This document shows, piece by piece, positions 3,131-42,680 of a DNA stretch of 64,000 bases (position 1 is the stretch's first letter; each line of letters begins with the position of its first letter). The notes under the pieces are model-generated. The model ran no database searches and was not told the origin of the DNA. It saw only the letters and a list, made by a program, of their open reading frames with translations. The stretch covers positions 103,728,001 through 103,792,000 of the forward strand of contig NC_086107.1 of NCBI RefSeq assembly GCF_963921235.1, given 5' to 3'. A program made the translations under genes and the position numbers. The DNA is from Mobula hypostoma. Lineage: Eukaryota.

Positions 3131-3311
3131 CAATTTCTCCCTCACTCTCTTAACTCCTAACCTTGTCTCGATTCATTAGCTTGTATTTTGTGCCAAGATT
3201 CCAGCATCTAAGGGCTCTTGCGTCTCGTTGCTTTCCCCAATGTGGTTTGTGTCCTGGTTTCTACTTCTTGCATTATTCCAATGCTGATGTTGCTCTATTC
3301 TTCCTTGACAG

Positions 3312-3485
3312 TTCAATAAGCACCTCTTTGTCCACATTGGCCAGTCGAGTCGATCTTACAGTGAGGGTCTGCTTGAATCCATTGACATCCGCCAAATCTA
3401 CGATAAGTTTCCGGAGAAGAAGGGGGGCTTGAAGGAGCTGTTTGAGAAAGGAACGCCAAACACGTTTTTCCTTGTCAAATTCTGG
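3312..3485 (+). CDS. TEAD2: TEAD2-like coding exon (YAP-binding domain)
   Basis: ttccttgacag|ttc ... tgg|gtcagt; 174 bp, phase 0-0; [58 protein letters not shown]. Confidence 0.97.
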
Positions 3486-5335: not shown

Positions 5336-5389
5336 CCCTAGATGCATCACAACAACCAATTTGACACCAAATTTGTTACAGAAGTATGT

Positions 5390-5960: not shown

Positions 5961-6118
5961 TGTGTATGCCACCATGTACTACCCTGAGACTCATTTTCTT
6001 GCAGACATTCACAGTAGAACAAAGAAACACAATAGAATCAAAGAAAAACTGCACACGGCAGACAAATAACTAATGTGTAAAAGAAGATAAACTGTAAAAA
6101 CAAATAACAATAATAATA

Positions 6119-6440
6119 ATAGATATAGCCATTCCAAACACACATAACTTACAGGATTCAATAAGTGAAAAACAGCAGAAATATGCTGAATTAAAAGAGG
6201 AAATTGAAAGACTATGGAACATGAACAGGTTATACATTGTCCCAATAGTAATATCTACAACTGTCATCATTTCAAAGTCACTACACAACAGCATTAAACA
6301 ATTAGGTCTACACAGCAATATCTTTGTAAATCTCCGGATAGCCACAATTCTAAACACCACCAGAACAGCCCAAAAGTTCCTAGCAATTGACAGATGAGAG
6401 AGATTGGCTATTTCCATACCTCGAGTTTTACCAACTTGAG
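6119..6440 (+). mobile_element. R4/Dong-like non-LTR retrotransposon 3' fragment (restriction-like endonuclease C-terminus)
   Basis: Reads IDIAIPNTHNLQDSISEKQQKYAELKEEIERLWNMNRLYIVPIVISTT..., the D-x-A-x-P...EK..KY..L..E.. motif of RLE-type elements; abuts a (TAA)n run. Confidence 0.65.
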
Positions 6441-7309
6441 CTGGAAAACGTGTAGGTAGGTAGGTATATATAGATAAAGAAAATGATAGATAGACAGATA
6501 GATAACTCTAAGAACATAGAGTCCTTGAAAGAGGGTTCATACGTTTGTAGGTTGTGGCTCTACTGGGCAGATAACATCTATAGAAAGAAAAACAGAGATA
6601 TTACTTCACATCCTTTGTCAGAATTGGAAAAGAGAGAAGACAAATTAGTTTTAAATTGGGTCAAAGAAAAAAAATCATGAGCTGCTAGGAAAACTCAGTC
6701 GGTCAGGCAGCATCTGTGGAGGCGAAGGAATGGTCGACGTTTTGGGTTGTGACCCTGCATCAGGACTGAGAATGAGGAGGGGAGACGAGATGAAGGGGGT
6801 GGGGGGAGGGGAGCGAGGTTTGGGCTGGTGGGTGATAGGTGGATCCAGGTGTTGATTGGCAGACGGAGGGGAAGGGTGGAGAAAGCAACGGGGGATGAGA
6901 TAACGGGTGGAGGCTGCAGATGGCGAGCCCTGTTTAGAAAGGAAGGTGGTAAGGGAGAGCTGGTGGCCTGATAGGAACAGGAGGGGGAAGGGATAGGGGA
7001 CCCAGTAGATTGAGTGGGTGGTGGGTAGATGGAATCATGTGAGGGAGGGGAAAGAAACTGGGTAACAGGAAGCTGGGGTTTAGATGGGGGAGGATGTGTG
7101 AGGGGAGTCGGGTAGATCAGGAAGAGATTGGAAAGAGAGTGGGTTACCTGAAATTGGAGAATTCAGTGCTCACTGTGTTGGGTTGCTGACCACACCGGTG
7201 GAAATTAAGATGCTGCGCAGACACTGTGGGGTAGGGGGAAGGAGGGGAGGGGGGAGGGAGTGATCAGACAAAGGTAATCGCTCTGATAGGAAGAGAAGAG
7301 GATTGCAGA

Positions 7310-8200
7310 ATCACGATCAGGTTCATTACCACTGACACCTGTGGTGAAATGTATTGCTTCGTGGCTGCAAGACATAAGGTTTGCTATAAATTACAAAATA
7401 AATAAAAAGCACAAGAGACAGATAACGGCGTGAAGTTCGTGGGTTCGTGGACTATTCAGAAATCCGGTGACTGAGGGGAACGAGCAGTTCCTAAAATGAT
7501 GAGTGTGGGTCTTCAGGCTCCTGCACCTCCTCCTTGATGGTAGCAGTGAGACCAGGACAGGTCCTGGGCGGTGAGGGTTTCTAATGATGGATGCTGCCTT
7601 CTTGAGGCGCGTCCTTTTGAAGATGTCCGCGGTAGTGGGGATCACTGTGGCTGTGACGGGGATGGCCGAGTCCGCAGCCTCCTTTGATCCTGTGCACTGG
7701 AGCCTTCTTACCAGCTGGTGCTGTAACCAGTCAGAATGCTTGGTCTCCAACGTTCTGTATATCTATAGAGCTTTGCTAGAGTCTTTGGTTGCAGACAAGA
7801 TCTTCTCAAACCCCTAATGAAATGAAGCTGTTGACATGCCTCCTTCATGGCTGCATCAACGTGCTGCAACCAGGATAGATCCTGTCAGACGCCCAGAAAC
7901 CTGAAGCTGCTCACCCTTTCCATCTCCGGCCCCTCAGTGAGGACTGGTGTGTGCTCTCTCAACTTCCCCCTTCCCGAAATCCAAGCCAGTTCCCTGGTCT
8001 AGCTGATGTTGAGTGCAAGGCTGTCGTCGTGCCACTGCTCGAACCAGCCGACCTATTTCACTCTGAGATTCTGCCAACAATGGCGGTGTCATCGGCGAAT
8101 ATATAGATGGCATTTGGTCTGTTCCTAGCCACGCGGACACAAGTGTAGAGAGTGTCGAGCAGTGGGCTAGGCGTTCACCCTTAAGGCAGGCCTGTGTTGA
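7310..8200 (-). mobile_element. Rex-Babar/L2-type LINE 3' fragment, degraded
   Basis: ORF remnants KKAASIIRNPHRPG...LLPSRRRCRSLKTHT..FRNCSFPS, homologous to ORF 43489..44220. Confidence 0.7.
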
Positions 8201-8346
8201 TTTCAGCTAGCTGATTGAATCACTTTTCCAGCCTGACGGCAGTCTCCCAAGAGGAAGTCAGAATCCTAAAGCAAAGGGAATGATGATATTGGGTGGGACG
8301 ATGTGAGTCTTTGATTAAACCTAATACTTATTCTCTCCTCTTTCAG

Positions 8347-8487
8347 GCCGACCTTAGTATCAATATCCAGGACGAAACGGGCCTGTTTTACGGGGTTACC
8401 AGTCAGTATGAAAGCATTGAAAATATGACCATCACTTGCTCCTCCAAGATCTGCTCCTTTGGCAAACAAGTTGTAGAAAAGGTTGAA
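8347..8487 (+). CDS. TEAD2: TEAD2-like coding exon
   Basis: ctcctctttcag|gcc ... gaa|gtaagt; 141 bp, phase 0-0; [47 protein letters not shown]. Confidence 0.97.
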
Positions 8488-8909
8488 GTAAGTTCCCGTT
8501 TCCTTCGTTTGGGCCTACTTCATCACGATGTACAGCAGAACTGTAGGAACCCGGTATCCTGTTGTAAAGATCCCGACGGAGGCGCACGATGTCGGAATCT
8601 CGAGCAGCAAACAATCTGCCGGAGGAACTCAGAAGGTGTGGGGAGCAAAGGAATAGTCTCATGCAGGCTTTCGGCCTGAAACGGCAACAGTTCCTCTCCC
8701 CTCACAGATCCTGCCCCCAAGAGGTCCAGCACCTTGTTGTAGGGTCTGGAGGCTTGCCTACCTCAATGACCCGGAGGGCTATGTTGGCTGGGGTCAGGGC
8801 CTTGTACTTGATGCTTGGTAGAGTCACCCATGCCAAACAGGTCAAAGGGTAGAGGCCAGACTAAGAGCGGTCCACCAGTCCTCCAGGTTTGGGTGTTCAG
8901 CTCAGGGCT

Positions 8910-11682
8910 GAAGGAGGGCTGTGATTGCCAACTAAATATTCCTGGATTTAATTGCTTCAGGTGTGATAGAATCAGAGGGACAAGAGGGGGAGGTGTTGCA
9001 TTGTTTGTCAGAGAAAATATTACAGCAGCGCTCTGGCAGGATAGATTAGAGGGCTCGTCTAGGGAGGCAATTTGGGTGGAATTGAGGAAAGAGAAAGGTG
9101 TAGTAACTTTTATGGGGGTGTATTATAGACCACCAAATGGAGAGTGCGAATTGGAGGAGCAAATTTGTAAGGAGATAGCAGATGTTTGTAGTAAGCACAA
9201 GGTTGTGATTGTGGGAGATTTTAATTTTCCACACATAGACTGGGAAGCCCATACTGTAAAAGGCCTGGGTGGTTTGGAGTTTGTAAAATGTGTGCAGGAT
9301 AGTTTTTTGCAGCAATACATAGAGGTACCAACTAGAGAAGGGGCAGGGTTAGATCTCCTGTTAGGGAATGAGATAGGTCAGGTGACGGAGGTTTGTGTTG
9401 GGGAGCACTTCGGGTCCAGTGATCACAATGCTATTAGTTTCAATATAATTATGGAGAAGGATAGGTCTGGACCCAGGGTTGAGATTTTTGATTGGAGAAG
9501 GGCTAACTTTGAGGAGATGTGAAAGGATTTAGAAGGAGTGGATTGGGAGAATTTGTTTTATGGGAAGAATGCAACAGAGAAATGGAGGTCATTTAAAGGT
9601 GAAGTTTTGAGAGTACAGAATCTTTATGTTCCTGTTAGGTTGAAAGGAAAGGTTAAAAGTTTGAGAGAGCCATGGTTTTCAAGGGATATTGGAAACTTGG
9701 TTCGGAAAAAGAGAGATATCTACAATAAATATAGGCAGTATGGAGTAAATGAGGTGCTCAAAGAATATAAAGAATGTAAAAAGAGTCTTAAGAAAGAAAT
9801 TAGAAAAGCTAAAAGAAGATATGAGGTTGCTTTGGCAAGTAAGGTGAAAATAAATCCAAAGGGTTTCTACCATTATATTAATAGCAAAAGGATAGTGAGG
9901 GATAAAATTGGTCCCTTAGAGAATCAGAGTGGACAGCTATGTGTGGAGCCAAAAGAGATGGGGGAAATTCTGAACAATTTCTTTTCTTTGGTATTCACTA
10001 AGGAGAAGGATATTGAATTGTGTAAGATAAGGGAAACTAATAGGAAAGTTATGGAAACTATGATGATTAAAGAAGAGCAAGTACTGGAGCTTTTAAGGAA
10101 TATAAAAGTGAATAAGTCTCTGGGTCCTGACAGGATATTCCCTGGGACCTTGAGGGAAGTTAGTGTGGAAATAGCAGGGGCTCTGACAGAAATATTTCGA
10201 ATGTCATTAGAAACGGGGATGGTGCCGGAGGATTGGCGTATTGCTCATGTTGTTCCATTGTTTAAAAAGGGTTCTAAGGGTAAACCTAGCAATTATCAGT
10301 CTGTGAGTTTGACGTCAGTGGTGGGTAAATTGATGGAAAGTATTCTTAGAGATGGTATATATAATTATCTGGATAGACAGGGTCTGATTAGGAACAGTCA
10401 ACATGGATTTGTGCGTGGAAGGTCATGTTTGACAAATCTTACTGAATTTTTTGAAGAGGTTACTAGGAAAGTTGACAAGGGTAAAGCAGTGGATGTTGTC
10501 TATATGGACTTCAGTAAGGCCTTTGACAAGGTCCCACATGGAGGCTTGGTTAGGAAGGTTCAATTGTTAGCTATTAATATTGAAGTAGTAAAATGGATTC
10601 AGCAGTGACTGGATGGGAGGCACCAGAGGGTGGTGGTGGATAACTGTTTGTCAGATTGGAGGCCGGTGACTAGTGGTGTACCTCAGGGATCTGTACTGGG
10701 TCCAATGTTATTTGTCATATACATTAATGATCTGGATGATGGGGTGGTAAATTGGATGAGTAAGTATGCAGATGATACTAAGATAGGTGGAGTTGTGGAT
10801 AATGAAGTAGGTTTTCAAAGCTTGCAGGGAGATTTAGGCCAGTTAGAAGAGTGGGCTAAAAGATGGCAGATGGAGTTTAATGCTGATAAATGTGAGGTGC
10901 TACATTTTGGTAGGACTAATCAAAATAGGACATACATGGTAAATGGTAGGGCATTGAAGAATGCGGTAGAACAGAGGGATCTAGGAATAATGGTGCATAG
11001 TTCCCTGAAGGTGGAATCTCATGTGGATAGGGTAGTGAAGAAAGCTTTTGGTATGCTGACTTTTATAAATCAGAGCATCGAGTATAGGAGTTGGGATGTA
11101 ATGTTGAAATTGTACAAGGCATTGGTGAGGCCAAATTTCGAGTATTGTGTACAGTTTTGGTTACCGAATTATAGGAAAGATGTCAACAAAATAGAGAGAG
11201 TACAGGGAAGATTTACTAGAATGTTACCTGGGTTTCATCACCTAAGTTACAGAGAAAGGTTGAACAAGTTGGGCCTTTATTCTTTGGAGTGTAGAAGGTT
11301 GAGGGGGGACTTGACAGAGGTGTTTAAAGTTGTGAACGGGATTGACAGAGTTGACGTGGATAGGCTTTTTCCATTGAGAGTAGGGGAGGTTCAAACAAGA
11401 GGACATGGGTTGAGAGTTAGAGGACAAAAGTTTAGGGGTAACATGAGGGGGAACTTCTTTACTCAGAGAGTGGTAGCTGTGTGGAACGAGCTTCCAGCAG
11501 AAGTGGTTGAGGCAGGTTCGATGTTGTTGTTTAAAGTTAAATTGGACAGCTATATGGACAGGAAAGGAATGGAGGGTTATGGGCTGAGTGCAGGTCGGTG
11601 GGACTAGGTGAGAGTAAGAGTTCGGCATGGACTAGAAGGGCTGAGATGGCCTGTTTCCATGCTGTAATTGTTATATGGTTAT
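8910..11682 (+). mobile_element. CR1 LINE, 5'-truncated, nearly complete ORF2 (APE endonuclease + RT) with two in-frame stops
   Basis: ORFs 8815..9522, 9538..10608 and 10630..11607 share one frame; motifs GVYYRPP, GDFNFP, SDH, QHGF, DFSKAFDKV, GVPQGSVLGP, YADD, TRGH; gttatatggttat tail. Confidence 0.95.
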
Positions 11683-13324
11683 TAAAAAAAATTGTTGAGG
11701 CAACAGCGATGAAGAAAGGCTTCATGGATGCCCAAGGTGCCAGTGGTGTTACAGGTATTTGCCGTTGTACAGATGCTGCTCGGCCCCTGAGTTCCTCAAG
11801 CAGATAGTTACTTGCCATATAAAGTCCAAAAGGTTCGGAATGGTTTCACTGTTTCCCAGCCTCCCTTTAAACACAACAGGTTCCCCCGGAGAATTTATTG
11901 TACTACTGTGGTTCATGCTTATGAATGAAACCATGTTGGGGCAACGTCCAAAAATACACAAAATCTGTTCCTTCCAGCACTGTCAGTGTGCTTAGAGTGC
12001 CAGATTATTGGAGCTAGAGTGGAACAAGATGGGCCAATTTTGCAGACTATTGGATTTGTTCGAGTGATTTTGGGGTTTAGGGCATGTACATCTAGCAATT
12101 GACTTTGGCTACCAGTCTTCAGATCTGAATATGGATTGTGGATTTAATTTGGAGTGCAACTCTGAACAATGGGCTCCTCAGAACTGTGAATCCCAGTCTA
12201 GACAATGCTGATTCAAACTCGTTTGGATATCTATGGTGTAGATGTGAATCAGGAGATGTGAAGGTCATATGCAGTTTCAAAGAAAGCATTGTCCATACAT
12301 TGTGAATATGGAGTTGTCCTTTGATGTTTGGCACATAAAATATCAAGCCTCATGTTGGGCCAGCAGACCTTTCGACCAAAAGTGTCTTCATATGATGCCT
12401 GCTGTACCTTGTTTTGTTGAATGAAGAAGCTGCTTTGTGTCTCTGGTAATGTTCTCTGGTGACTTCATTCACGCAACAGCAGATATTACTCCGGTATCCA
12501 AACAACCCAAAACACAATTTTGTTTCACCTGTTATACTGAGGAAGAATTCCAGATGAGTTTAAAGGGAAGCTGGGCACCTCTGGACACCAGCTCCTGCTG
12601 CAAACCCACTGTCGTTCTTGATCCCTGGGCTTCCAGACCCCAACCCAGCTCAGGGCTCGGACCCCAGACCCACCACATCTCAGACCTCCAGGTCTGCTCA
12701 CGCACACCATCTCCTCCCTTACCTCCCCTCCCCCCAAAACTCTGGACACTCAGCTCACTTTCCAGATGAATGAGAGAACGGGATGCCAAATTTTCAGAAC
12801 AATCAGTTGCAAGGTTATAGGAGCATTTTTCAATGATTGACTTGTGGAGGAAGAAACTGTGTGGACAATTTAATCGTCTTTACACCTTTGGCACTGAAGG
12901 TCCCAATCTTGTTATTTTTTCTATTTTCTGCCCTGGTGGAAAATCTTACTGTCCGGGCAGCTTGTTATTCTTTCTTTTTAAATCTTTTTATTAATTTTCA
13001 AAATTATAAACTCAATAACAAAATTGGTACAAAGAGATTGGAATAATCTTAATCAGCATATATTAAAAGGATTTTAAGTAACATAGGTATAATAAACTTC
13101 CAAACTCATAATGAAATTAGTCATATAAAAAGAAAAAAATATATATATAAACAAAGAAAAATCCCCAAAAGAAAAAGAAAAAAAAAACCCAAAAGGAAAC
13201 AGGGCTAGACCAATATCCTGAATCAGACATGTTCAGTAATGTCGTCCCAGACAGCTTGTTATTACCTTTTCCACCTCAGTGCCCTGGGTTCTCACTGAAG
13301 GATGCCCCTGTTTATCTCCTCCAG

Positions 13325-13477
13325 ACAGAATATGCCCGGTTTGAAAACGGCCGCTTTCTGTACCGGATCCATCGTTCTCCGATGTGTGAGTACCTCGTCA
13401 ACTTTATCCACAAGCTGAAGCAACTGCCTGAGAAGTACATGATGAACAGTGTCCTGGAGAACTTTACCATTCTGCAG
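13325..13477 (+). CDS. TEAD2: TEAD2-like coding exon (contains the conserved palmitoylated Cys, RSPMCEY)
   Basis: tttatctcctccag|aca ... cag|gtacga; 153 bp, phase 0-0; [51 protein letters not shown]. Confidence 0.97.
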
Positions 13478-15194
13478 GTACGATTGTTGGCAAATAAATA
13501 AACTGAATTTAGACGAAATGATCCGACTGTCAGCAACATGCCTCTTCATGATGGTTGCTGTGATTAGCATCACTTGTGGGATCTTTTAAGGTTTTATTAC
13601 TAGTCTTAAATATACACTTGTTAAAAATTCATCGACTATTTGAAGTAACTGGCTGGTCATTGAATTTTCTTGCATTTGCAAGCTGCAGTCTGATAAAAAA
13701 TATTACTTTATTGAATGCAGGCAATTTAATGCATGGTCTGAAACGTACAACCAGAATGCTCCGTGCATTAGGTTTACAAATGTGTACATTTATACTCACA
13801 GGCATGCTGCAGGTCACTCTTACAGGAAAACTGAATACCAGAAGCTGTCCCGGCTGAAGAGAGTTTCCCCTCACTTCCACCACTCCCGAGTCTCTCTCCC
13901 CTGGGGCCCTAATCCCAGGCCTGAAGCCTGATGGATTTCCTTTGAAAATTCCACCTTGGGCCTTGTGCTGTTAAATTTCCTATGTCTGGGACCTCATCAC
14001 ATGTTTGTTGTTCAACATTGTTGTTTGTTGTACAGCACCGTACAGGCCTGTCGGCCCATGACATTGTGCCAACCTTTTAACCTACTCTAAGATGAATTTA
14101 GTCCTTCGCTCCCACTTAGCCCTCCGTTTTTCTATCATCCACGTGCCTCTCTAAAAATCCCTAATGTACCTGCCCCTACCATCACCCCGGCAATGCATTC
14201 AATGGTTCAATTTAAAATCGAAGAATGTATACAGTATGCAACCTGTAATTCTTACTCTTTTCAGACGTCCACAAACCAGAAAAAAAAATTACAAAGAATG
14301 AATGAGAGAAAGCATTAGAACCCCAAGCACCCCCCCCCCCCGCCACTTCCGGACATCCCACCTCTCCCGGAAGTTCCGGGAGTCTCCTGCATATTAATAG
14401 TGGCTCCCTGATGCCCGCAAATTATATACAATATCCCAGAAATCAATTTTTTTGAGAGCGAGAGAGCGCAAGAGCGAGAGGGAGAGCGTGAGAGAGAGCG
14501 AGCATGCGAGCGACCACGCGAGAGGGAGAGAGAGAGAGAGAGTGCGTGCTAGAGAGAGAGAGCGCGCACGCACGCTATGGGAGAGTGTTCCAAAAAAAGA
14601 AAATATAAACGTACGTCACCCCAGACTACACTAAAATGTACCCCTCCCTAATAGGGGTCAAAAATAATGACAGTGTTGCTCGCTGCGCGGTTTGCAACAG
14701 TGACTTTTCTATTGCCCATGGTGGGTTAAGACTGTAAAAGACATGTTGAGGTGAGTTTAACAGGTGCCATTCGTTCATTAGCATAGCTAACGTTATTTAA
14801 ACTAGCTGGCCAGCTGCTAAGGAGCTACTCTGTTGCAGACATCCCACCTCTCCCAGAGGTCTCCCGCAAATTGATGGTGCTACCTCCCTGAAATGAGTTT
14901 TTGCAGGGTGGGTTGTCTGCACTTCCCCCTTTGACACACAAGCAGTGGCAAAAGCATCAACCACCCGCTTCCCCACACTTGCTCCAGCAACAGCATCAGC
15001 CCCCTCCCCACCACCCACCGTGCACGAAATAGCAACGCCCCCTAGAGACGCTGATCTAGAGTCTGTGAAAATCTACTGTCTATCCCAACACTTTGGCGTC
15101 TCAAACAGGCCCTCTCCCTCACACACCTGCCACTCTGTAAAAACTTACCTCTGATATCAGCCCTACCTCCCTCCAAACAGGTTGATTCCATGCC

Positions 15195-23048: not shown

Positions 23049-24320
23049 AAGAGGGAGGGGCCAGCCTTCTCCTACCAGCCTTGGAGAAGATGTTTCCTAC
23101 TGTGGGTTTCTTGGACACAGCCTCAGAATAAAATGACTTCGCTTTAGAACAGAAATAAGGAGGAATTTCTTTAGCCAGAGTGCGGTGAATGTCTGGAACT
23201 CATTGTCACAGATGGTATGAAGATTGTCAATGGGTATATTTAAAGCGGAGGTTGATAGGTTCTTGATTAGTATCAGAAGGCATCATTAAGTTCCCATGGA
23301 CCAGCTGGTGACAAACACTGGGTAAAGAGCATGGATCACAAGACCGTATAACCTTGTCCCGCCCTCACAAACTGCTCTAAGATATAGAATGTGGAAAGGT
23401 TGGAATCATTGAATAGCTGATAAGAAGAGGAGTGGGGATAGGAACAAGGATGGGGCAGGAACAGGAACAGGATTGGGAGCAGGAATAGAGTTGGGGACAG
23501 GGAAAGGGATGGTGGACGTGCATGGGGATGGACAAGAGGGGAGAGATTTGAGAGGAACTTGAGTGCGGGGTCGGTATATGGAATGAGCTGCCTGAGGAAG
23601 TGGCTGAGGGAGGTACATTAAACATATTTAAACCGGCACGTGGACAGGTACATCGATAAGAAGTGTTCGGGGGATGTGAGCCAAATGCAGGGACGTGGCT
23701 TGAGTAAACAAGTTGGTTAGCATGGATGAGTCGGGCCGAAGGGCCTACTGCCACGCTCTATAGCTCTGTGACCCCATGACTGGAGTGGCAGTGAAGTTCA
23801 AGAGCAGGGGTGGGGAGAGGAACTGGGACTGGGACAGGAATAGGGATGGAGCCAGGAACAGGAAGGTGAACTAGAGTAGGAACCACCTCCGGGGATTTTG
23901 ACATTTCCAGCATCACCGAGTCAAACCAACACCAGAACCGGCTGGTTGGATGAGCTGACCACCACCCAGCGTGTGGGCTGGGAGTTCTTTGTACTGGCTG
24001 GTCCAGCCCACAGGGTAGGGCACAAACACAACACAGAAAATGCTGGAAGAACTCAACAGGACAGGCAGCACAAGCGTCCCCCAAATATTAGCTGTTCATC
24101 CTTAAAAAAGCTGCCACTCCCAAAACGCTTCCAGCATTTCCTGTCTGTGTCTCAGACCTGCAGCATCTGCAGGTTTTTAGTTTCCTCGGGACACGAATAT
24201 CGCCAGCAGATGATAAGATGTGAAGGCCCAGGCTTTCGACCATGACCCAGCCCCTCATCAGCGCAATAATCATCTCCACAGACAACCCAGCACACGGCTC
24301 ACTGACACCCACCAAGTGAC

Positions 24321-24326
24321 TTTATT
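24321..24326 (-). terminator. Polyadenylation signal AATAAA of the neurotensin-like gene
   Basis: tttatt on + strand, ~65 nt downstream of the TGA at 24393-24391 on the minus strand. Confidence 0.7.
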
Positions 24327-24390
24327 GAGCGATTTGCTTTGCAAATGATTTCACGCTGTGAGTCGGGGAGCAGCAGGCCGTCGCCGGGGA

Positions 24391-24549
24391 TCAGCGGAGA
24401 GGCAGCGGAATTCCGAGGAAGCGCCACAGGATGTACGGCCACTTCTTGTTGGAGTTAAGTTGCCGCTTCAGGATGTACGGTGACCTTTGGCGGCTGGATT
24501 TCTTCAACATTCGCCTCCCGTTTTCCTTCCATGTTTCACACAGCAGGGC
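24391..24549 (-). CDS. Neurotensin/neuromedin N-like precursor, terminal coding exon (peptide-encoding)
   Basis: Strong acceptor ctaactctgcctgtttctgtccgcag|; phase 0; ALLCETWKENGRRMLKKSSRQRSPYILKRQLNSNKKWPYILWRFLGIPLPLR*. The tandem PYIL-KR-QL..NK..PYIL pattern matches the NTS C-terminus (human KRKIPYILKRQLYENKPRRPYILKR). Confidence 0.9.
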   Translation of the reverse strand, partial: ALLCETWKENGRRMLKKSSRQRSPYILKRQLNSNKKWPYILWRFLGIPLPLR

Positions 24550-25903
24550 CTGCGGACAGAAACAGGCAGAGTTAGGGACCAGAGTCCGGTGGAATCCCTG
24601 CCCGCTGGGGTTAAAGGACTGTGTATGTGCGTGGCTGGGAGGGATGATGGTTTTGTTCTATGTTGTTTCTCTCACCTTATTTCCTTACCTGCCCATCACC
24701 TCCCTCTGGTGCTCCTTCCCCTTCCCTTTCTTCCGCGGTCTTCTGTCTTCTCCTCTTCTCCAGCCCTGCATCTCTTTCACCAAGCAACTTCCCAGCTCTT
24801 TAATTCACCCCTCCTCCCTCCCGGTTTCACCTTTCACCTTGTGTTTCTTCCTCCCCTACCCCCACCTTCTAACTCTGACTCCTCATCATCTTCCTCCAAT
24901 CCTGACGAAGACTCTGTACTCTTCTCCATAGATGCCGAGTTCCTCCAGCATTTTGTGTGCATTGCGTGGGCTTGTTGTGTTGGTTTATTTATTTATTTAT
25001 TGGGATACAGTGCAGAACAGGCTCTTCCAGTCCTGCAACCCCCGATTTAATCCTAGCCTGACCTCGGGTCAGGTCACTCGTCTGAGTACTACTGGTACCA
25101 TGTAACCCAGTACTACCTGTCGCATAGTCGGGTGGTCGGCGACTAAACCGGCTCCCCCCACCAGGCTTACCCGTTGAGGAGGGTGGCTAGACATCCTGCA
25201 GGACGAAAAACAAGACCTGTCAAAGGGTGGATGAACCCTCTCGTAGGGTCAATGGCCATCTAGCAAACACGTGCCGGGAAGCGGGGAAAGGGCATCCCTC
25301 GCATCGAAGCTTGGTCTGGCCATTCACTGCAACAGAACTTCCCCCGGCCGTCTTGGACCCCACCGTGCAGCTGGATCCGGGATGGGATGTCGAGAGGGTG
25401 GGTCTGGACCTGTGCAACCCCCTACTCACCTAAAATCCACTCAAGCACACGCTGTTCCTTTCTGAGGAGTGCGGTACCACCCCACCAACTGAGTGAGAGG
25501 AACCATCATCATCCAATGGGATGGATAGCCAGAGAGAGAGAGAGAAGATCCTAGCCTAATCACAGAACAGTATACAATGACCAATTAACCCACCAACTAG
25601 TAGGTCTTTGGACTATGGGAAGAAACTGGAGCACCCGGGGAAAACATACAATCTCCTTACAGGCAGCAACGGGAATCGAACCCGGGTCACCTGTACTGCT
25701 AACCACTGCACTGCTGTGCCGACCTATGCTGGTGCCAGAATGTTTGGCAACGCTTCAGCACACCCACAGGCGTGTTGGTTTTCAACGCAAACAACACACT
25801 TTGCTGTACATGTGGCAAATATAGTTAAATCTTGAATCTTGACCAATCAGCATTCAGGAAATCTCCTGCAGACATGACGTACCAAATCGGAGAGTTAATC
25901 TAC

Positions 25904-26086
25904 CTGGGACGTTTGGCATTTTGAAGCGGGCCCTGGTCTTCGGGTGCGGTTCGAACTGAAAGGGGCAAGGTGTAGGGAGTTTGAGCTCAGTGATAGATTG
26001 TGGACAAGGCGCTGGTGAACCAATGTCAGGGAGAAGAGCTGACTAAGAGGTGTGGATGGAACACACGGACGGCTATCAGGATCTCC
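25904..26086 (-). CDS. Neurotensin-like precursor, coding exon 3 (predicted)
   Basis: ttctgatcctgtattgtcatgcgtag|gga ... cag|gtagat; 183 bp open, phase 0-0; GDPDSRPCVPSTPLSQLFSLTLVHQRLVHNLSLSSNSLHLAPFSSNRTRRPGPASKCQTSQ; TLVHQRLVHNLS weakly resembles human NTS TLLNVCSLVNNLN. Confidence 0.6.
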
Positions 26087-26544
26087 CTACGCATGACAAT
26101 ACAGGATCAGAAGGTACAACATCCAGTGAGTGGCCGTTCTGTGTGTGAAAATGCCTTGTTAGTGAGAGCGGTCAGAGGAGAATGGACAGATTGGTTCAAG
26201 CTGACAGGAAGGCGACTGTAACTCAGGTAACCTCGCATTACAACAGTCCTGAAGAAGGATCTTGGCCTGAAACGTCTATCCACTTCCGTACATGCCGCCT
26301 GGCCTGCTGAGCTCCTCCAGCATTTTGTGTGTGTTGCGTTACAACAGTGGTGTGCAGAAGAGCAGTTCTGAATGCATAACACGTCAAACCTTGAAGGGGG
26401 AGGGCTACAGGAGCAAAAGGCCATGAGCATGCTCTCAGTGGCCAATCTATTAGGTACAGGAGGTAATAAAGTGGCCAGCGATTGTACATTTGCCTTCTAA
26501 TTACATTCTCCCGCAGAGAGTGAAATCGATAAACGTATACTCAC

Positions 26545-26603
26545 GTGCGGGTTTTGCAGACCCTCACTGTAATCTTGTGTCATCACTGAAGGCAGCTGGA
26601 GTT
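26545..26603 (-). CDS. Neurotensin-like precursor, coding exon 2 (predicted)
   Basis: gtcttgttcgtttttatccag|aa ... cac|gtgagt; 59 bp; only the phase 1 to 0 frame is open: (E)LQLPSVMTQDYSEGLQNPH; size and phase resemble the short NTS exon 2. Confidence 0.7.
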
Positions 26604-28152
26604 CTGGATAAAAACGAACAAGACGTACGTCAAGGTGAGGGAGCGTTTGAATCGCACAGGCAGAGACAAGGCCTTCGACGATCTGCCGCCAGCTTTCAAT
26701 GGGTTACTTCAGACGTCTTGGCATTAGGTTTCACCAGCTCCAATCACCGGTCTGCCTGTTCTGATTCAGATTTACTTATCACGTGTACTGTACATCGAAA
26801 CATACGGTGAAATGTGTTCTTTGCATTAACAACCGCTTGGCAAAACAACACAGACAAGATTGTTTAATGCCACTTCCAGTACACAAGTGTAAAGGAGAAC
26901 AAAATAATTATTACTCCGGGTCTGATGTAGCTCCAAAAAAACACTTTCCGATAAAGAACACAATAATAGTAAAAGCTCAGGATAGCTTATATTCATAGGT
27001 AGATTGTATGTCCATAAATGACACTAGGCACAGGAGTGTCTGGGCATAATGTGTCCGACAGGAAATGATAAATAATGGTGGTGGGGTGTGTGGAGGGGTG
27101 GATTAATGGGTGGAGATGTAGATCAGCCACACTGCTCGGGGAAAGCAATTGTTTTTGTGTCTGGCGTGAATATGGTGCAGTCTCCTCCCTGATGGGACTG
27201 GGACAAACAGCCCATCAGCAGTGTGGGTGGGTGTACTATTCTATGTTCTATGAAACTAAAGAATCTTTGACTTATTTGAACTAATAGTTATTAATAAAGA
27301 ATGATATTTGTCAGGCAAAGTCACTTGCCCTTTCATTGAACTGTTCGCACCACCAATGGACTTGGTTTCAATGACTCGTCATCTCATGTCCTCAATATTT
27401 ATTGCTTATTTCCCTATATTATTGTTTCTTATTTTGTATTTGCAGTTGGTTGTCTTCTGCACTCCGGCTGATCACCCTAGTTTGGTGGCCTTTCATTGAC
27501 TCTTTTATAGTTACTATTCTATAGATGTGTTGAGTATGCCCACAAGAAAATGAATCCCAGGGTTGTATATATGTATTTTGATAGTAAAATTTACTTTGAG
27601 CTTTGAACTTTAACCAATACGTCTTTGGACTGTGGGAGGAAACTGGAGCACCCGGAGGGAACCCATGTGGTCACAGGGAAAGCATGCAAATTCCTTACAG
27701 ACAGTGGCAAGAATTGAACCCCAGTCACTGGTGCAGTAAAACGATGTGCTAACCACTATACCACCGGAGATTACCGTATGTCCTGGGTCTGTGCTGAACC
27801 AAACCAAAACAAAGACGCAAGAGACCGCAGATGCGGCCTCTCTTTTCTGCCCTTCAAGCTATGCCCACTCTGAAGAAGGCTTCCTGCCCTCTCCAACAGG
27901 AGCTCTGTGAGACCCTCTCTCACTGCTCCTCCTCTGTGGTTTCTGCTGCCGTCCTGCTCTTCGACCACACTCTCACCCAGACTCACCAATCCCGGCCCCG
28001 GTACTTGTCCAGATCCTCAACACAGGAATAGGAACAGGCCCTCGATGTCTGTGCCAAGCATGATGCCAAATTAATCTAAATCTCTTCTGCCTGCAGATGA
28101 TCTCTATCCCTCCATTCCCTGCGTATTCCCATGTCTATATAAAAGCCATTAT

Positions 28153-31100
28153 TGTTGTGTCTATTCACAACTACATATCAATTAAGTAAAAGCACGCACG
28201 CGGGAGATGGCTTTAACTGGTGTATTCGCATAGCAGCATGAGAGAGAACAATACACATGTGTAGACAACAGCACATGCGCAGACGGTAGATCAATATGTA
28301 GTGCCAGGGGGTGGGGGTGATCATTGCTCTAAAAGAAATAGATCCATACATTACACTTCCTCCCCCTTTGGATTAATGTAACGTAAACCCGATTATGTAC
28401 CAAAACAATCAATTTCCCTTTCATAAGCCAATATTCCAAATAAACGTGCTTTCACAGTAACAGTCCATAACTAACTTCACAGTTCTAAAGGTTCAGTCTT
28501 TTGGGGGGCGCTTTGTTTCTTTAAGGACATCGCCTCTGGACCAGTGGAGTGGATCAGGTTTGGTAGGTGTCTTGTCTAAGACAATGCTCTCGGTTTCCCT
28601 TGCCACGTTGCTGTCGGTGACATGATCATCACTGAGAGGTAAGTCAGTGGCTGTAATGTGTCCTTCTTGTTGGATGTAGTCGACTCAGGTGTGTTCTTTG
28701 ATTGAGCGTCCAGCATCTGGTCCACATGACGTCTTCATGTCTGATCTCCAATATTAGATTAGATTAGATTATGAGGACGTGCAGTCCTCATTTATTGTCA
28801 TTTAGTAATACATGCATTAAGAAATGATACGATGTTCCTCCGGTGTGATATCACAGAAACACAAGACAGACCAAGACTGAAACTGACAAAACCACATAAT
28901 TATAACATATAGTTACAACAATGCAAAGCAATACCGTAATTTGATAAAGAATAGACCATGGACACGGTAAAAAAAAAGTCTCAAAGTCCCGATAGCCCCA
29001 TCATCTCATGCAGACGGTAGAAGGAAGAGAAACTCTCTCCCTGCCATGAACCTCCAGCGCCGCAAACTTGCCAATGCAGCACCCTGGAAGCACCGACCAC
29101 AGCCGACTCTTGAGTCTGTCCGAAAACTTCGAGCTTCTCCGACCAGCCCTCCGACACCGAGCACCGAGCACCATCTCTGCCGAGCGTTTTGACCCCGGCC
29201 CCGGCCGCCGAGCAACAGGCAAAGCCGAGGACTTGGGACCTTCCCCTCCGGAGATTCTGGATCACACAGTAGCAGCGGCAGCGAAACAGGCATTTCAGAA
29301 GTTTCACCAGATGTTCTTCCATGCTTCTCACGTCTGTCTCCATCAAATCAGGATTGTGTATGGCATCCTACTTAACAAATAACAGATATTCATTCCGGAG
29401 TGGCAGCTGCACGCTGCGTCGCGCCGCCATCTTCTCTTCACTGTATACATCAGTGGTCCAGTTCTTATAGCTATCCCGCCAGGTATGCACTTGTCTTCTC
29501 GGTAATCATGTGCTGGGACTTCCTGTCCAATCACGAATCTCCTTGCTGGTTGTCTTAGCAACTGGCTGAGCTGTTTATTCTGCACTTCCCTCCTTAGATC
29601 TGCTTCAGGAGGTCTATGCGAGATCTCAGATGCCTGTACGTGAACAGCATTACTGGTGTTTGATTTATCATCACATGGACAGAATTCCAATACACAAAAG
29701 GAAGTTGTCCACCTTGTGCTGTAGAGAAATATCCTCCTTGTCCATTGCTTTAATGGATTTCTTGAAGGTTTAGATAAACCTTTCAGTGAACCCATTCGTT
29801 GTTGGGTGGTGAAGAGCTGATTAGAAATGTCTGAGACCATTTTTCTTCATGAACAGTCGGAGTTCTTCTGATGTGTATTGTGGTCTATTGTCACTCACTA
29901 TTTGTTCTGGTAAGCCATTTCTGGCGAAGATCATCCTCAGAGTGGAAACAGTCTTTGCTGAGGTGGTTGACTTCATTGGTATAACCTCCAGTCACTTTGA
30001 ATGAGCATCCACAATATTTCAAGATAACATTGTGTTCCTGGGGTATCTTGGAGCACTTGGTGCATTGCTCTTTGCCAAATTGCTGGAGCTGATGCGATGC
30101 CAAAGACAAGGTGATTATACTGGAACAGTCCCTTGTGAGTGTTGATTGTCAGGAACTTCCTGCTTGTCTCCTCAATCTCCATTTGCAGATAGGCTTGTGA
30201 CAAGTAAATCTTTGAAAACCTCTCCCCACCTGCCAACGATGCAAAGATGTCTTCTATTCGTGACAAGGAGTACTGCACCGTACACAGCACTGGGTTGATG
30301 CTCACCTTGAAATCCCCACATATGTGAACGGCCCCGGCCTTCCCTGTCTTGATCACCGGGACAATGGGCACAGCCCAATCTCTCCACTCAACCTTGGAGA
30401 GAATTCCAGATGCCTCTGAGCTCTGCAGTTCAGCGTCCACCTTAGGATGTAATGTGTAAGGCACGGGACATGCTTTATGCCTTGGAATCTTGGTGGTGCT
30501 GTTTCATCCAGTTCAACTCTGGTCTTCATGCCTTTGAGTTTACCAATCCCCTTCTCATCAGCATTAAGCAGTTGTTCCAGTCTCTGTTTAGTGCTACCAT
30601 TTGGGCTGCCATTGCCTGTTGATATTACACTGAGAGCTTTGATTGAGTGCCGGTGTAGGTGGATTTTTCTCAATTCACATCCAAAAAGAGCTGGCCTTCC
30701 ACCTTTCAATACATGAAGCTCTAACTGCTGTGTTTGGCCTCCATACATCACATTTACTTTCAGGTTGTCTTTGGGAGGCACTTTTTCACTTGTGTAAGTC
30801 TTTAGCGTCACTGAGGTCTTCTCTCATGGTATCTCAGAAAACAGTCTATTGTAGTCAGCCTCTGGAATTATGGACAAAGTGGACCCTATATCCAGCTCCA
30901 TTTTCAGTTTTACACCAGACACATCTATTGTGATCCGTATTATACTGTGATCTGCTTCAGTTATGCTATGCAGCTTTAGGCATGACAGCTCACCCTATGT
31001 TGTCTGATTCTGTTTTACATTCAGTAACTTTATGCATTTGCTTAGTTTTGTGTTTGAGACTTTTCTCTCAGTTGTGCTTTTTGTCTGCCTTGCACACTCG

Positions 31101-32155
31101 CTCTATGTGACCTTGTTTGTGACACTTTCTGCCTATTTTTTTTCTTTGAGCCATCAGTCTTTTGCATCATGGGAGGATTTGCCACATCAATAACGTTTTT
31201 GGCTTTTTGCACCATGCAGGGACATTTTGTACAATTCACATTCTAACTTCCTTTTCTGTAGTTCTGCCGCAGCCTTTGCTTCAGTTTCTAATCATATTGT
31301 GATGGTCAATGCCTGTTCTAAATTTAGGTCTCTTTTGGATAATAGCCTCTTTTGAGAGCTTTGACTATGCATGCCACATGCGAGCCTGTCCCTTAATGCA
31401 CCAGAAGGTCCATCTCTAAAGTCACAGTACTGTACTGGGAAAGTTTGTGCAGTTCTGCAATGTATTCAGAAGGCTTTCATCTTTTGACTGGTTCCTTTGG
31501 TAAAATCTAAATCTCTCAGTTATTACCAGCAGTTTAAGGCTCAAGTGATTTTGTAAAACTGTGACAATTCCATCGAGCGTCTTGCTTGCTGGCTTTTCAG
31601 GGGTTACTAGGCTGCATAAGAGACTGTATGCTCTTGGGCCCATTAAGCTGAGAAGTGTAGGGGCTTTCTTTCACTCCTCCACTTTGTTCATGTTACAATA
31701 CAGTTCAACCCTCTCCCAGCCTTCATTAGCGCTATCAGATTCATCAACTTTCCCGACTGAGTCCATCGCCACGTTATTTTCACTTCAAATTCAGTGCGTC
31801 TTTTGCGGTTAGTTACGTGTTCCTTTGAGAGTGTCCGTGACAGCTTTCTCGTGCTGTTTAACTCTCTCCGTTTTGTCCCATAACTGTCGGTGCAGTTTGT
31901 AATATTTCCTGACATTCAGGTTTGTACATGTCACCAATCTGTTGTGTCTGTGCACAACTACATACGTATTAAATAAACGTATGCACGCGGGAGATGGTTT
32001 TAACTGGTTGCAGCGAGCGAGCGAGAGAGAGAGAGAGAACAACTTGCATGTGTAGACAACAGCACATGCACAGACAATAGATCAATACATGGTGCTAAGG
32101 TTGGGGGGGTGGGGGTGGAGTCATTTCTCTAAAAGAAGTGGATCCATTCATTACA
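28153..32155 (-). mobile_element. Gypsy LTR retrotransposon, degraded, both LTRs present
   Basis: LTRs tgttgtgtc...cattaca at 28153-28355 and 31940-32155; 5-bp TSD attat on both sides; PBS-like tggtgaca (minus) near 31929-31936; PPT beside 28356; gag remnant (31422..31643) and RT remnant WAVPIVPV..ICGDFK..INP..FGIASAPAIWQRAM (29973..30464). Confidence 0.9.
28754..29436 (-). mobile_element. Young non-autonomous retroelement with (TCTAA)n tail, nested in the Gypsy element
   Basis: 5' end aagatggcggcgcg, 3' stem-loop gaggac...gtcctc and atctaatctaatct tail; highly similar copies at 32745-33358, 58384-59040, ~60446-60839 and ~63295-63795. Confidence 0.8.
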
Positions 32156-32744
32156 ATTATCCATCACCAGCCCAGGCAATGGGTTCCAGGCACCTAACAT
32201 ACTCTGTGCAGAAAACTGACCCCTCACATCTCCATTAGACGCAGGAGCAGAATTAGACCATTCAGCCCATCGAGTCTGCTCTGCCATTACATCATGGCTG
32301 ATCCATTTCCCTCTCATCACCTTTAAACTATTCCCCTCTCACCCTCAACCTGTGACCTGTGGTGTTTGACATTCTGCTCTGGAGATAAGACTCTCACTAT
32401 CTACATTATCTGTGTCTTTCATAATTTTATAAACCTCTCCGTCAGATTCACCCCTCAGCCTCTGATGTTAGAGAAAACAAACGAAGTTTGTCCAACCTCT
32501 TCCTATGGTTAATACTCTCCATTATAGGCCACGTCCTTGTGACCTTCTTTTCTGCCCCCTCTCCAAAGCTTCCTCAACCTTCTGGCAGTAGGGTCCAGAA
32601 CTCCACACTATGACATTAAGGTGCTGGAGGGATTGAATAAAATGGTTCTAGGGATGGGAAGCTCAGTCAATGAGGTTAGACTGGATTTGTTCTCACTGTG
32701 ACAGACAAGGAGATCAGATAGCGTTACTTAAACGGCGGGAGGAG

Positions 32745-33358
32745 AAGATGGCGGCGCGCCGTGCGTGCGCAGCTCTCCAGTGAAAAATGATGTCGTATCT
32801 GTTAAATAGGGGCCGTGGACAATTCTGATTTGATGGAGAATGGACGTGAAATCACAGAGGAACATTTGGAGAAATTTCTGAAACGCCCGTCCGCTGCTGT
32901 CGTTACTGTGTGGTCGGGAATCTTTCGGAGGGTAGGCCTCAAAGTCCCCGGTCTTGCCTGCTTTTGGCGACTGAGAAGGAGGTCGAATCGTTTGGACAGA
33001 GATGGTGCTCAGTACTCAGTGTCGGAGAGCTGATCAGAGCTCGAAGTTTTCGGATGACTCAGAGTCGGATTGTGGTCGGCATGGCAGGGAGAGTTTTTCT
33101 TCCCTCTCCCGTCTGCGTGAGATGTGGGACATTTGAGAAACTTTGAACTTTACTGTGCTCACGGACTTCTTCATCAAGTTATGGTATTGTGCAGTGTTTG
33201 TAACTATATGTTATAATTATGTGGTTTTGTCAGTTTTTTCAGTCTTGGTCTGTCCTGTGTTTTGTGATATCACACTGGAGGAAATAATGTATCATTTCTT
33301 AATACATGCATTACTAAATGACAATAAAAGGGGACTACGTGTCTTCATAATCTAAAAT
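32745..33358 (+). mobile_element. Copy of the (TCTAA)n-tailed non-autonomous retroelement
   Basis: Same 5' aagatggcggcg head and 3' gacaataaa...cataatctaa end as 28754-29436. Confidence 0.8.
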
Positions 33359-34029
33359 CATTAAGGATCTAGACCAGGGGTTCCCAGCCTTTTTGATACC
33401 ATGGACCAATAGGTCCATGGACCCCAGGTTGTGGACCCCTGGTCTACAGAGAGGAGGGAGAAGGAAACTGCTCCCATTGGGGGAGGGGGCCAGGACAGTG
33501 GGGGGGGGGGGCATAGAATGATTGTGATTGGCAAGTGACCCCTAAGTCATATGAGGAAACATTTTGATATCCTGGGAAGTGTTTGAAGTCTGGTTACACC
33601 ACCATGGCAGGTAGGAGAGGTAGATTCAATAGCAGTGTTCAAAAGGGAGCTGGAGAAACATCAGGAAGGGAGGAGTGTGCAAGGCAGGGGAGTGGGACAA
33701 TTTCCTGGAGAGAGTCAGCACTGACTTGATTCATGAAGCAACCTCTTCCATGGTACCACGCTTTTTTTAAATGTCAACTTTCTCCGCTCTAAAGGTGAAC
33801 AATCTCAGATAGTCTCAGCTATCTCGGTATGGCTCATCCTCAGATCTAATCTCTTTGCATCCTCCAGAGCACGTACGTCTTCCCTGCCGTGAGATGTTCA
33901 GATGTGGACCCAATGGTCCGGCTGGAGCCCAATTACCCAATGTGTGTGAGGCAGGGAGGCGATGTGGAAAGTGTGAACAGCCACATCACTGACTGCCAGT
34001 TAGATCTCGTGATCCTGTTCTTCACCCTT

Positions 34030-34685
34030 CCCACACTGTCTCTGCACTGGATCACTGGATCACCGGGGCACTGGATTACTGTCTCTAACTGGCTCGCCGT
34101 CCCTACACTGGGTCACTGCTCCTAAACTGTTTCAATCCTGCTTCACTGCCTCTACACTGGATAACTACCACTACGCTGGCTCGCTCCTCCAAGAGGACCA
34201 CTACCTTGTCGTAGGGTTTGGAGGCTTGGATGCCTCAGTGACCCAGAGAGCTACGCTGGCTGGAGTCAGGGCTTTATGGTTTGGCTTTTGGTAGGGTCAC
34301 CATGCCAAACGGGTCAAAGGGGAGCGGCCAGACCATGAGTGGTCCACCAGTCCTCCAGGTTTGGGGGTTGAGCTCAGGGCTAACAGCCCTGACTGGTAAA
34401 AAAGCAAAATTGTTATGGAAACAGTCCGAAGAATCCTTATACATCTGAGTGCGACTGTATGGACAGAGAGAGATGGAGGACCTTCATTGCTGCCATAAAT
34501 GCCAGCGGTGTAATGGCAGTAAGCAGACACTGGATTGGATTACTGATTCTATCCCACGCCCCTGCCTTTATACTGGCTCACTGCCCCACTCTGGATCACA
34601 GCCCCTACACTGAATCACTGCCTTTCACTGGCCCAGTACTCAGCATTTCCTCAGGAATTACACTGGTTCACTGCCCCAGTGACAG
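34030..34685. repeat. Degenerate minisatellite (ccctacactggatcactg-like units) interrupted by an interspersed repeat at ~34195-34525
   Basis: Repeated cactggatcactg / tacactgg units on both sides; the inserted repeat is homologous to ~8725-8908. Confidence 0.6.
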
Positions 34686-34992
34686 AGTCCCTGTCCAGAT
34701 GACGTCAGTGGGGAATGAAATTCAGTAGGCCGCAGCTGGGGTTTGACGTGTTACCACCTCAAAGATGAGGCTGTGGAGGGATTTACTAAAATGGTTCTAG
34801 GGATGGAACTCTAGAACCTCCAATCACCTCCACAACCTATGGCTCAGAGATGTTCACGGCCAGGCAGCTGGGAGGTAAGACCGGTGAAATGTACCCAGGT
34901 TGGTGTATTCAGAGGTTCTTGTTCCTCAGTTAAAGACCTTCCCATTTAGCCTCCCCTGCCCTGTCCCCTACAGCCCACAGCAAGGCTCTCAC

Positions 34993-35053
34993 CTGTGGAA
35001 ACTCTGAGCATTCCTGCCAAGATTCCGATCACCCACAGCGGGTAGAAATTCAT
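34993..35053 (-). CDS. Neurotensin-like precursor, coding exon 1 (signal peptide)
   Basis: Acceptor ctttgtgtttgtatttccag| at 35064, Kozak accgccATGa, MNFYPLWVIGILAGMLRVST+g, donor cag|gtgaga in phase 1, compatible with the 59-bp exon; hydrophobic core typical of a signal peptide. Confidence 0.75.
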
Positions 35054-35519
35054 GGCGGTTACACCTGGAAATACAAACACAAAGTGACCAGTCAGCCAGG
35101 AAGTTGCCAACATTCGACATTGGTATGACATTGTGGGGACCAGCGTGGCAATATCGAGGGTGTGATTCCCTGCTTGTTAAACAGCAGGACACAGGGTCTA
35201 AACTAGGTTTGTCAGAAACTTTCTGGAGCTCATCAGATTTTACTGATGAGGGACACTGGAGTTGGTAAGGACAACTTGTCCAGTCCCAACCATCACCCTC
35301 CTGGTACAGTCTGGCAGGCTCGAGACTTCACTGTGCTGAACCAGTAGATGTTCTGGGCTCACCATTGTCATTATGTGCTGTGTCAATTATTATCTATTCC
35401 AGACTATTGCATGTTATTTCTGCTGATACCTCAACACTCTTAATTCCACTTTTTCTTAACATACTGAATCCCTAAAAATTTATTTTCTAGTGAACCAGGT
35501 AAGGTGAAAGGGTAAGTTT

Positions 35520-42613: not shown

Positions 42614-42680
42614 CTTCGTGTGTTGAAGAGGATCTGAATGGTCGGCTCCCCCCTCCTGGGATTCGGGCTGTGGCTCGTTT
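42614..42680 (-). other. Candidate non-coding first exon (5'UTR) of the neurotensin-like gene
   Basis: Lies just downstream of a TATA-like box on the minus strand, has no ATG and ends at donor cgaag|gtaaca; the signal-peptide exon has a splice acceptor, so an upstream exon is required. TSS approximate. Confidence 0.5.

Follow-up and report, generated by a model that had tools for sequence, protein, structure and literature searches.

The 64,000-nucleotide stretch of the Mobula hypostoma genome analysed here, hereafter the window (positions 103,728,001 to 103,792,000 of contig NC_086107.1, called C45 below, thus 103.73-103.79 Mb), carries on its minus strand what appears to be a second gene of the neurotensin type. 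With a probability of about 0.68, we read it as a genuine gene that is transcribed, is present in a single copy and encodes a secreted prepropeptide of the neurotensin/neuromedin N family, and as an ancient paralog of the canonical neurotensin gene NTS. The evidence for a conserved, transcribed paralog is good, and the gene is a new, unnamed member of the neurotensin precursor family whose orthologs are known only under uninformative names.

Gene structure and encoded peptides

Joining the four minus-strand exons by script gave 462 nt encoding a 153-residue protein identical to that proposed in the initial annotation, whose exons, GT-AG boundaries and intron phases of 1, 0, 0 were reproduced exactly, the phases being computed from exon lengths of 61, 59 and 183 nt. 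The exon with the start codon lies at 34993..35064 (ATG at 35053-35051, 61 nt from the ATG; acceptor AG at 35066-35065, donor GTGAGA) and encodes a hydrophobic, signal-peptide-like N-terminus. It is followed by coding exon 2 at 26545..26603 (59 nt, entered in phase 1 and left in phase 0), by a predicted coding exon 3 for the pro-region at 25904..26086 (183 nt, phase 0/0, an open frame with AG/GT sites), and by the coding part of exon 4, stop codon included, at 24391..24549 (159 nt), which is defined by its translation, its match to the Pfam family Pro-NT_NN and its identity to a sawfish protein. An AG acceptor and a GT donor are present at each coding exon (donors GTGAGA, GTGAGT and GTAGAT), and pyrimidine-rich tracts precede the acceptors. 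The 3' untranslated region (UTR) and transcript end occupy 24310..24390, with AATAAA at 24326-24321. This signal, 65 nt past the stop codon, the hydrophobic N-terminus and the favourable ATG context described earlier (G at -3, A at +4) are all present in the sequence. Exon 3 is a plausible pro-region exon, predicted only; splicing exon 2 straight to exon 4 likewise keeps the frame.

The tandem peptides are both encoded in exon 4, which translates as ...KKSSRQ-RSPYIL-KR-QLNSNKKWPYIL-WRFLGIPLPLR-stop. On the minus strand, the neuromedin-N-like RSPYIL is encoded at 24469-24486, the KR between the two peptides at 24463-24468, the neurotensin-like QLNSNKKWPYIL at 24427-24462 and the uncleaved tail WRFLGIPLPLR at 24394-24426. 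The order of a neuromedin-N-type and a neurotensin-type peptide with KR between them in one exon is the same in the sawfish Pristis pectinata and, to the end of its gene model, in the bamboo shark Chiloscyllium punctatum. The second copy departs from the familiar pattern in having KW before PYIL where NTS has RR, and it is followed by WR in the window or WP in Pristis, with no dibasic site.

A route from precursor to products can be proposed from these features. The signal peptide would be removed, prohormone convertases would cleave at the conserved KR that follows ...[R/K]SPYIL, and carboxypeptidase E would then take the KR off, to give an N-terminally extended neuromedin-N/LANT-6-like peptide with an -R-S-P-Y-I-L end and a free carboxyl. 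Candidate N-terminal cut sites are KK in two ray-lineage species, RR/KR 14 residues upstream in the window and the shark, and a single Arg/Lys; the likely first products are predicted to be N-extended forms of 10-14 residues. The released -PYIL peptide may act on the neurotensin receptor NTSR1, since the C-terminal PYIL is the motif that engages NTSR1 according to a 2026 preprint. NTSR1 is also the obvious candidate receptor because cartilaginous fishes, as stated in a preprint, seem to be without NTSR2. The neuromedin-N-like peptide is thus predicted, from its sequence, to be probably the active product. As no dibasic site follows it, the QLNSNKKWPYIL copy would stay fused to the conserved, hydrophobic 11-residue tail as a 23-residue peptide, and its action as a classical NTSR1 agonist is improbable, since it has lost the Arg-Arg pair as well as the dibasic site downstream and carries the fused tail.

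The exon that carries the start codon opens at an acceptor (35064/35065) and is probably not the first exon of the gene. Residues 79-110 of the Pristis model align to window positions 42700-42614 (44%, E value 0.13, tblastn), where a donor AAG/GTAACA is found at 42614/42613; directly upstream are a TATA-like TAAATAAATA at 42706-42697 and an inverted CCAAT at 42723-42719. An in-frame TAA closes the frame at this place, and downstream of that TAA the frame has no ATG. The stretch near 42.6 kb is consequently put forward as a candidate conserved non-coding 5' exon (42614..42675, minus strand, 5' end approximate) with a promoter directly upstream, and a total of five exons, of which four are coding, is probable for the gene. 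The Pristis RefSeq model has 114 residues N-terminal to the conserved Met of the signal-peptide-like N-terminus. What the model translates there is probably 5' UTR, a longest-open-reading-frame artefact, because the matching window frame is closed by a stop.

A canonical NTS gene in the same genome

Whether the window gene is simply NTS in an unusual place is decided by a second locus. A whole-genome search with the Pro-NT_NN model recovered a last exon at C36:11193371-11193508 with 57.8 bits (59.8 bits as an open reading frame, ORF), which reads ...KR-RYPYIL-KR-QARVEKTRRPYVL-KR-... and is the canonical neuromedin N/neurotensin pair of an ordinary NTS gene, at 11.19 Mb on C36. A single-exon MGAT4C-like gene (319 bits) lies 33 kb from this exon, an arrangement that mirrors the one in human, with MGAT4C beside NTS. 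No MGAT4 match was found on C45. As a canonical NTS thus exists on C36 near an MGAT4C-like gene, the window gene is supported as an NTS paralog on another chromosome, not a relocated NTS, and it is not the only NTS-like locus of this genome. The separate NTS gene near RASSF9 and MGAT4C that the initial annotation had looked for was therefore found with regard to MGAT4C, and not with regard to RASSF9: a RASSF9/10-type gene was not recognised in the 200 kb around the C36 NTS (26 ORFs scanned), nor among 30 ORFs of the 50 kb that follow the window, a stretch that is largely a 33-bp satellite.

Comparison of the two genes is confined to the peptide region. Searched against 200 kb of C36 with tblastn, the window protein aligns over 36 residues alone, 15/36 of them identical and including PYILKRQ, which bears out the earlier statement that the pro-region is barely alignable to NTS. 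When 105 minus-strand ORFs from 10 kb of C36 were compared with Pfam, exon 4 alone was recognised and none of the upstream NTS exons. The position of the last intron can nonetheless be compared: in both genes, 23 codons separate a phase-0 acceptor from the codon for the P of the first PYIL, which is thus the 24th, where the C36 acceptor was chosen by eye and an alternative acceptor, also phase 0, lies three codons upstream.

Conservation in other elasmobranchs

Homology searches were run with individual exons, or with ortholog proteins, as queries. Against a collection of 5.8 billion sequences, exon 4 matched one protein, XP_051898809.1 of Pristis pectinata (79% identity), named in the database 'uncharacterized protein LOC127585424'. 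HMMER, run exhaustively on 1.84 billion representatives, gave five matches, two of them real, and added GCC21428.1 of Chiloscyllium punctatum, named 'hypothetical protein chiPu_0019899' and, in UniRef, 'Secreted protein'. The remaining three belong to bacterial repeat proteins, whose repeats are of the GASRSTPYVV type, and were discarded as spurious. Word-indexed searches for further relatives with the Pristis precursor part and with the shark protein gave only the queries back. A genome-wide search with exon 4 found the window gene to be single-copy in its own genome.

Placed on the window by tblastn, the Pristis protein matches exon 1 at 79%, exon 2 at 89% and exon 4 at 79%. In a three-species alignment, identity to the window protein is 16/20 for Pristis and 10/20 for Chiloscyllium in exon 1, and the same in exon 2; exon 4 gives 41/52 and 21/36, respectively, and exon 3 gives 11/59 for Pristis and is not comparable in Chiloscyllium, whose truncated model has a much shorter middle part. 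The stop codon of Pristis is at the same position as that of the window gene. All three species keep the hydrophobic N-terminal core, from which a signal-peptide-like function and secretion may be predicted, and the [R/K]SPYIL-KR-QL core is invariant among them. Pro-NT_NN is the sole Pfam match of both orthologs; the window exon has one further match at chance level (E value 0.16).

The orthologous exons in related species by which the gene was to be judged thus exist for exons 1, 2 and 4 in both Pristis and Chiloscyllium, and their conservation in a ray-lineage species and a shark indicates that the gene is real, being more than chance would give. The description of the gene as possibly unannotated has to be divided: gene models of its orthologs exist already, and none was recognised as neurotensin-like. 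The gene would predate the shark-ray split, which is roughly 250-300 million years old.

Chromosomal setting and age

The neighbour of the peptide gene, arranged tail to tail with it, is a TEAD gene, which starts before the window (its TEA-domain exon lies 19 kb before it) and whose last exons, encoding the YAP-binding domain (YBD), are found at 3309..13498 on the plus strand, with YBD matches in ORFs 3309-3557, 8287-8676 and 13151-13498. Compared with solved human TEAD structures, one YBD exon scored 103.8 bits for TEAD3, 101 for TEAD4, 99 for TEAD1 and 88 for TEAD2, and another 80 bits for TEAD1, 71 for TEAD4, 62 for TEAD3 and 59 for TEAD2. The initial annotation had placed the gene next to TEAD2 rather than RASSF9/MGAT4C. 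A TEAD gene does adjoin it, on a contig without MGAT4; the name TEAD2 is not borne out by similarity, which is lowest for TEAD2 and higher for human TEAD1, TEAD3 and TEAD4, and synteny alone suggests TEAD2 orthology. A second TEAD gene lies at C45:3.4 Mb and a third at C5:120.4 Mb, adjoining another Tubby gene.

More distant neighbours connect the two neurotensin-type loci. SLC6 genes, B0AT-type by best PDB match, are found at 12.12-12.15 Mb on C36, 103.95-103.96 Mb on C45 and 25.49-25.52 Mb on C52; their exons have common boundaries, with identities of 73% between C45 and C36, 75% between C45 and C52 and 85% between C36 and C52. The three best L27 matches, LIN7-like, are at 14.16 Mb on C36 and at 90.28 and 25.15 Mb on C45, with none on C52. 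Neurotrophin matches occur only on C45 among these three contigs, at 90.32 and 25.03 Mb, each adjoining an L27 match. Tubby genes are at 31.1 Mb on C36 and at 104.3 and 41.8 Mb on C45, with none on C52, and single-exon MGAT4 genes at 11.16 Mb on C36 and 44.56 Mb on C52. Paralog pairs of SLC6, L27/LIN7-like and Tubby genes therefore occur on C36 and on distal C45, at spacings of 0.2-20 Mb, and from these within-genome facts alone, both genes of the neurotensin type are seen to occupy paralogous blocks. We take the C36 block to resemble human 12q21 (MGAT4C, NTS, SLC6A15, LIN7A) and the distal C45 block to resemble human 19q13.33 (NTF4, LIN7B, SLC6A16, TEAD2, TULP2), in both cases from human map positions.

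An ancient ohnolog is favoured over a lineage-specific copy because of these paralogous blocks and because the divergence between the paralogs is far above that between the shark and ray orthologs. The gene most likely dates from the early vertebrate (2R) genome duplications, an age that is moderately supported. At somewhat under even odds, we also put forward the more specific proposal of an 'NTS2': a 2R ohnolog kept in elasmobranchs beside TEAD2 and SLC6A16 and lost or overlooked elsewhere, supplying a second NTSR1 ligand together with a new 23-residue peptide that may have another target.

Two further observations were made on these contigs. C45 carries two sets of TEAD, neurotrophin with LIN7-like, and Tubby genes, at 3.4, 25.0-25.15 and 41.8 Mb as against 103.7, 90.3 and 104.3 Mb, which gives it the appearance of a fusion of two paralogous 2R blocks into a single chromosome. 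Another MGAT4C-like gene of the single-exon kind lies at C52:44560631-44561323 (316.8 bits), on a contig that also has a third SLC6A15/17-type gene.

Transcription

Six small public runs from two studies were considered, taken to be RNA by guess only as they are not recorded as such, and four of them, including X1, X2 and X4, were mapped. X1, X2 and X4 each gave a contig, 397, 302 and 299 nt long, respectively, that agrees with exon 4 and the 3' UTR but for 0-1 differences. In each, the match stops at 24548, the acceptor of exon 4, and is followed by 162, 63 and 102 further letters, respectively, that are unlike the intron. That the break falls at 24548 rather than at 24549-24552 would be explained by the first base of exon 4 being the same as the first intron base, with the GT-AG joint placed leftmost. 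At the other end, the X1 and X2 contigs stop at 24314 and 24310, directly past the AATAAA. A further X2 contig breaks at 26577, exactly 30 letters from the expected exon 1-exon 2 divergence, which would fit the presence of a spliced path beside the colinear one in a k=31 graph.

Of 30 bins for which coverage was computed, one (33742-34108) is without coverage in all four runs, and the remaining bins are repeat-dominated; the candidate 5' exon at 42614..42675 lies outside the read-mapped stretch. The k-mer shares computed for use of exon 3 are of a size that intron repeats could equally yield.

Relation to known peptide systems

According to a 2026 preprint, chordate NTS has four exons, intron phases of 1, 0, 0 and both peptides in one exon. 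The NTS architecture assumed in the initial annotation is confirmed by that preprint, and the window gene matches it. The likeness to NTS (PF07421) extends to a signal-peptide-like N-terminus, a poorly conserved pro-region and four coding exons with the same phases, exon 3 of the window gene being predicted; the last exon has in both a short xPYIL peptide, KR, and then a Q-initiated 12-13-mer ending PY[IL/VL], and the last intron appears at the same distance, 23 codons, before the first PYIL. The window gene differs from NTS in being a separate locus beside TEAD and not MGAT4C, in having KW for RR and W-R/W-P for KR after the neurotensin copy, with an 11-residue tail kept, and in a pro-region that is not alignable and a Pfam score under threshold.

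Neuromedin N and LANT-6 are the mammalian and chicken hexapeptides of the [K]-x-PYIL type. The first peptide of the window gene is like them in ending [R/K]-S-P-Y-I-L before a KR, and differs in being without a dibasic site directly before it, upstream sites varying by species. A PYIL-type C-terminal motif engaging NTSR1 is also described, in 2026 preprints, for the ancylotensins of hookworms, the octotensins of octopus and contulakin-G of Conus. These mimics have unrelated gene structures and lie outside vertebrates, whereas the window gene has both its gene structure and its chromosomal context in common with NTS; gene structure is also the feature by which convergent mimics are told apart from NTS in these preprints.

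Hormone-gene 2R ohnologs that are present in chondrichthyans and unknown in or lost from mammals have reported precedents in CRH2 and the multiple prosomatostatin genes. In contrast, no such paralog was found reported for neurotensin in full-text literature searches, whose scope did not take in preprint supplements that possibly hold NTS gene tables. Two 2026 preprints on neurotensin mimics treat neurotensin as a single chordate gene, and the word 'paralog' is absent from their available text.

A second, anciently diverged precursor, if our reading holds, would add a member to the neurotensin hormone family and would provide a natural experiment in which the neuromedin-N copy was kept and the neurotensin copy remodelled. 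Given the seeming loss of NTSR2 in cartilaginous fishes, reported in a preprint, one would then have to ask how one G-protein-coupled receptor can be shared between two ligand genes. If the proposal of an 'NTS2' is right, vertebrates originally had at least two neurotensin genes.

Counter-evidence and alternative explanations

Several results weigh against an ancient, transcribed paralog and have to be set beside the evidence above. The exon 4 match to Pro-NT_NN (PF07421; E value 7.8e-5, profile positions 133-158), the profile named for a check in the initial annotation, is the one relevant Pfam match of that exon and yet misses the gathering cut-off of 25.3 bits at 23.2 bits, as do the two orthologs at 18.9 and 19.6 bits; in the genome-wide profile search that recovered NTS, the window exon reached an E value of 1.1 only. 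Similarity to NTS beyond about 36 residues was not found, and a genome search with window exon 4 fails to recover the C36 gene. No counterpart of exon 3 was detectable in Pristis or Chiloscyllium, the BLASTP comparison being not significant, and the protein searches gave no relatives outside elasmobranchs. There is no dibasic site directly before the first peptide, and the N-terminal cut site differs among species. The paralogous genes of the two blocks are spread over 14-20 Mb, and the names 12q21 and 19q13.33 rest on human map positions and not on search results.

The transcription evidence is limited by the guessed RNA status of the runs. One X2 contig is colinear with the genome over 26577-26903, that is intron 1 plus 27 nt of exon 2, and an X1 contig is colinear within intron 1 at 31228-31458; unspliced RNA or DNA is thus present in these two runs. 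As to the splice junctions by which the gene model was to be checked, contigs leave the genome at the exon 4 acceptor, and no joint touching exons 1-3 is among the 15 joints listed of 408.

The gene could be of the same family and function and yet have arisen without 2R, if NTS was duplicated later, on the stem of the elasmobranchs or of the chondrichthyans, and the copy then diverged fast. This we regard as unlikely, if the most serious of the alternatives. It would agree with the restriction of the relatives found to a single ray-lineage species and a single shark, and with a pro-region that evolves very fast even between orthologs, and we know of no copy from well-annotated bony vertebrates. 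It sits poorly, however, with a gene located in a block with paralogs of the NTS-linked SLC6, LIN7-like and Tubby genes, an improbable landing place for a random insertion into 3.5 Gb, and with a divergence between paralogs (15/36 in the peptide region and nothing elsewhere) far above that of the shark and ray orthologs (10/20 in exon 1, 10/20 in exon 2 and 21/36 in exon 4).

A similarity limited to a short motif and sub-threshold in Pfam would also be expected if the gene were an unrelated one for a secreted peptide in which PYIL motifs had arisen convergently, as they have in the mimics of venoms and parasites. Such mimics are documented in hookworms, octopus and cone snails, which counts against homology. 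We nevertheless consider convergence improbable: the documented mimics differ in gene structure according to the 2026 preprints, but the window gene has in common with NTS the number of coding exons, phases of 1, 0, 0, tandem peptides in the same order with KR-Q at their junction, a last intron at the same place and the paralogous setting. Still less probable, in our estimation, is a decaying relic of an NTS duplication that yields a non-functional transcript and whose ORF is open by luck. The neurotensin copy without its RR pair and C-terminal cleavage site, the unconstrained exon 3 and the truncated shark model would suit a relic, but the signal-peptide-like N-terminus and the [R/K]SPYIL-KR-QL core are kept across lineages, the stop position is the same in Pristis, the frame is open with intact splice sites, and spliced contigs ending at the polyadenylation site exist. 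An ancient NTS paralog that is still expressed therefore is the reading we prefer.

Other features of the window and its surroundings

Pfam scans of 323 window ORFs (in sets of 150, 150 and 23) gave TEAD exons and retroelement pieces only. ORFs for endonuclease/reverse transcriptase of the long interspersed nuclear element (LINE) type lie within a TEAD intron (8812-11604, plus strand), inside intron 1 of the peptide gene (29976-30503, minus strand) and upstream of that gene (55442-57864, minus strand), the last with an open frame of 686 residues. Intron 3 of the peptide gene contains a tRNA-like element with the look of a short interspersed nuclear element (25600-25760, minus strand), and a short motif is repeated in its introns, for example at 24950-24990 and 26300-26340. 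Contig depths at these intron stretches are in the thousands, so that the element and the motif are abundant, transcribed repeat families.

Pfam matches to ALKBH8_N were obtained at 43492-44223 of the window (minus strand, E value 2.1e-8) and at 8951-9571 of L023 (minus strand, E value 3.6e-4); the ORFs concerned are probably part of a repeat and not a host gene. The 33-bp satellite starts 700 bases past the window end (C45:103792706-103802000), with about 280 copies at 83% matches, and in every frame it produces long but spurious ORFs that match 'Mucin-like' Pfam models.

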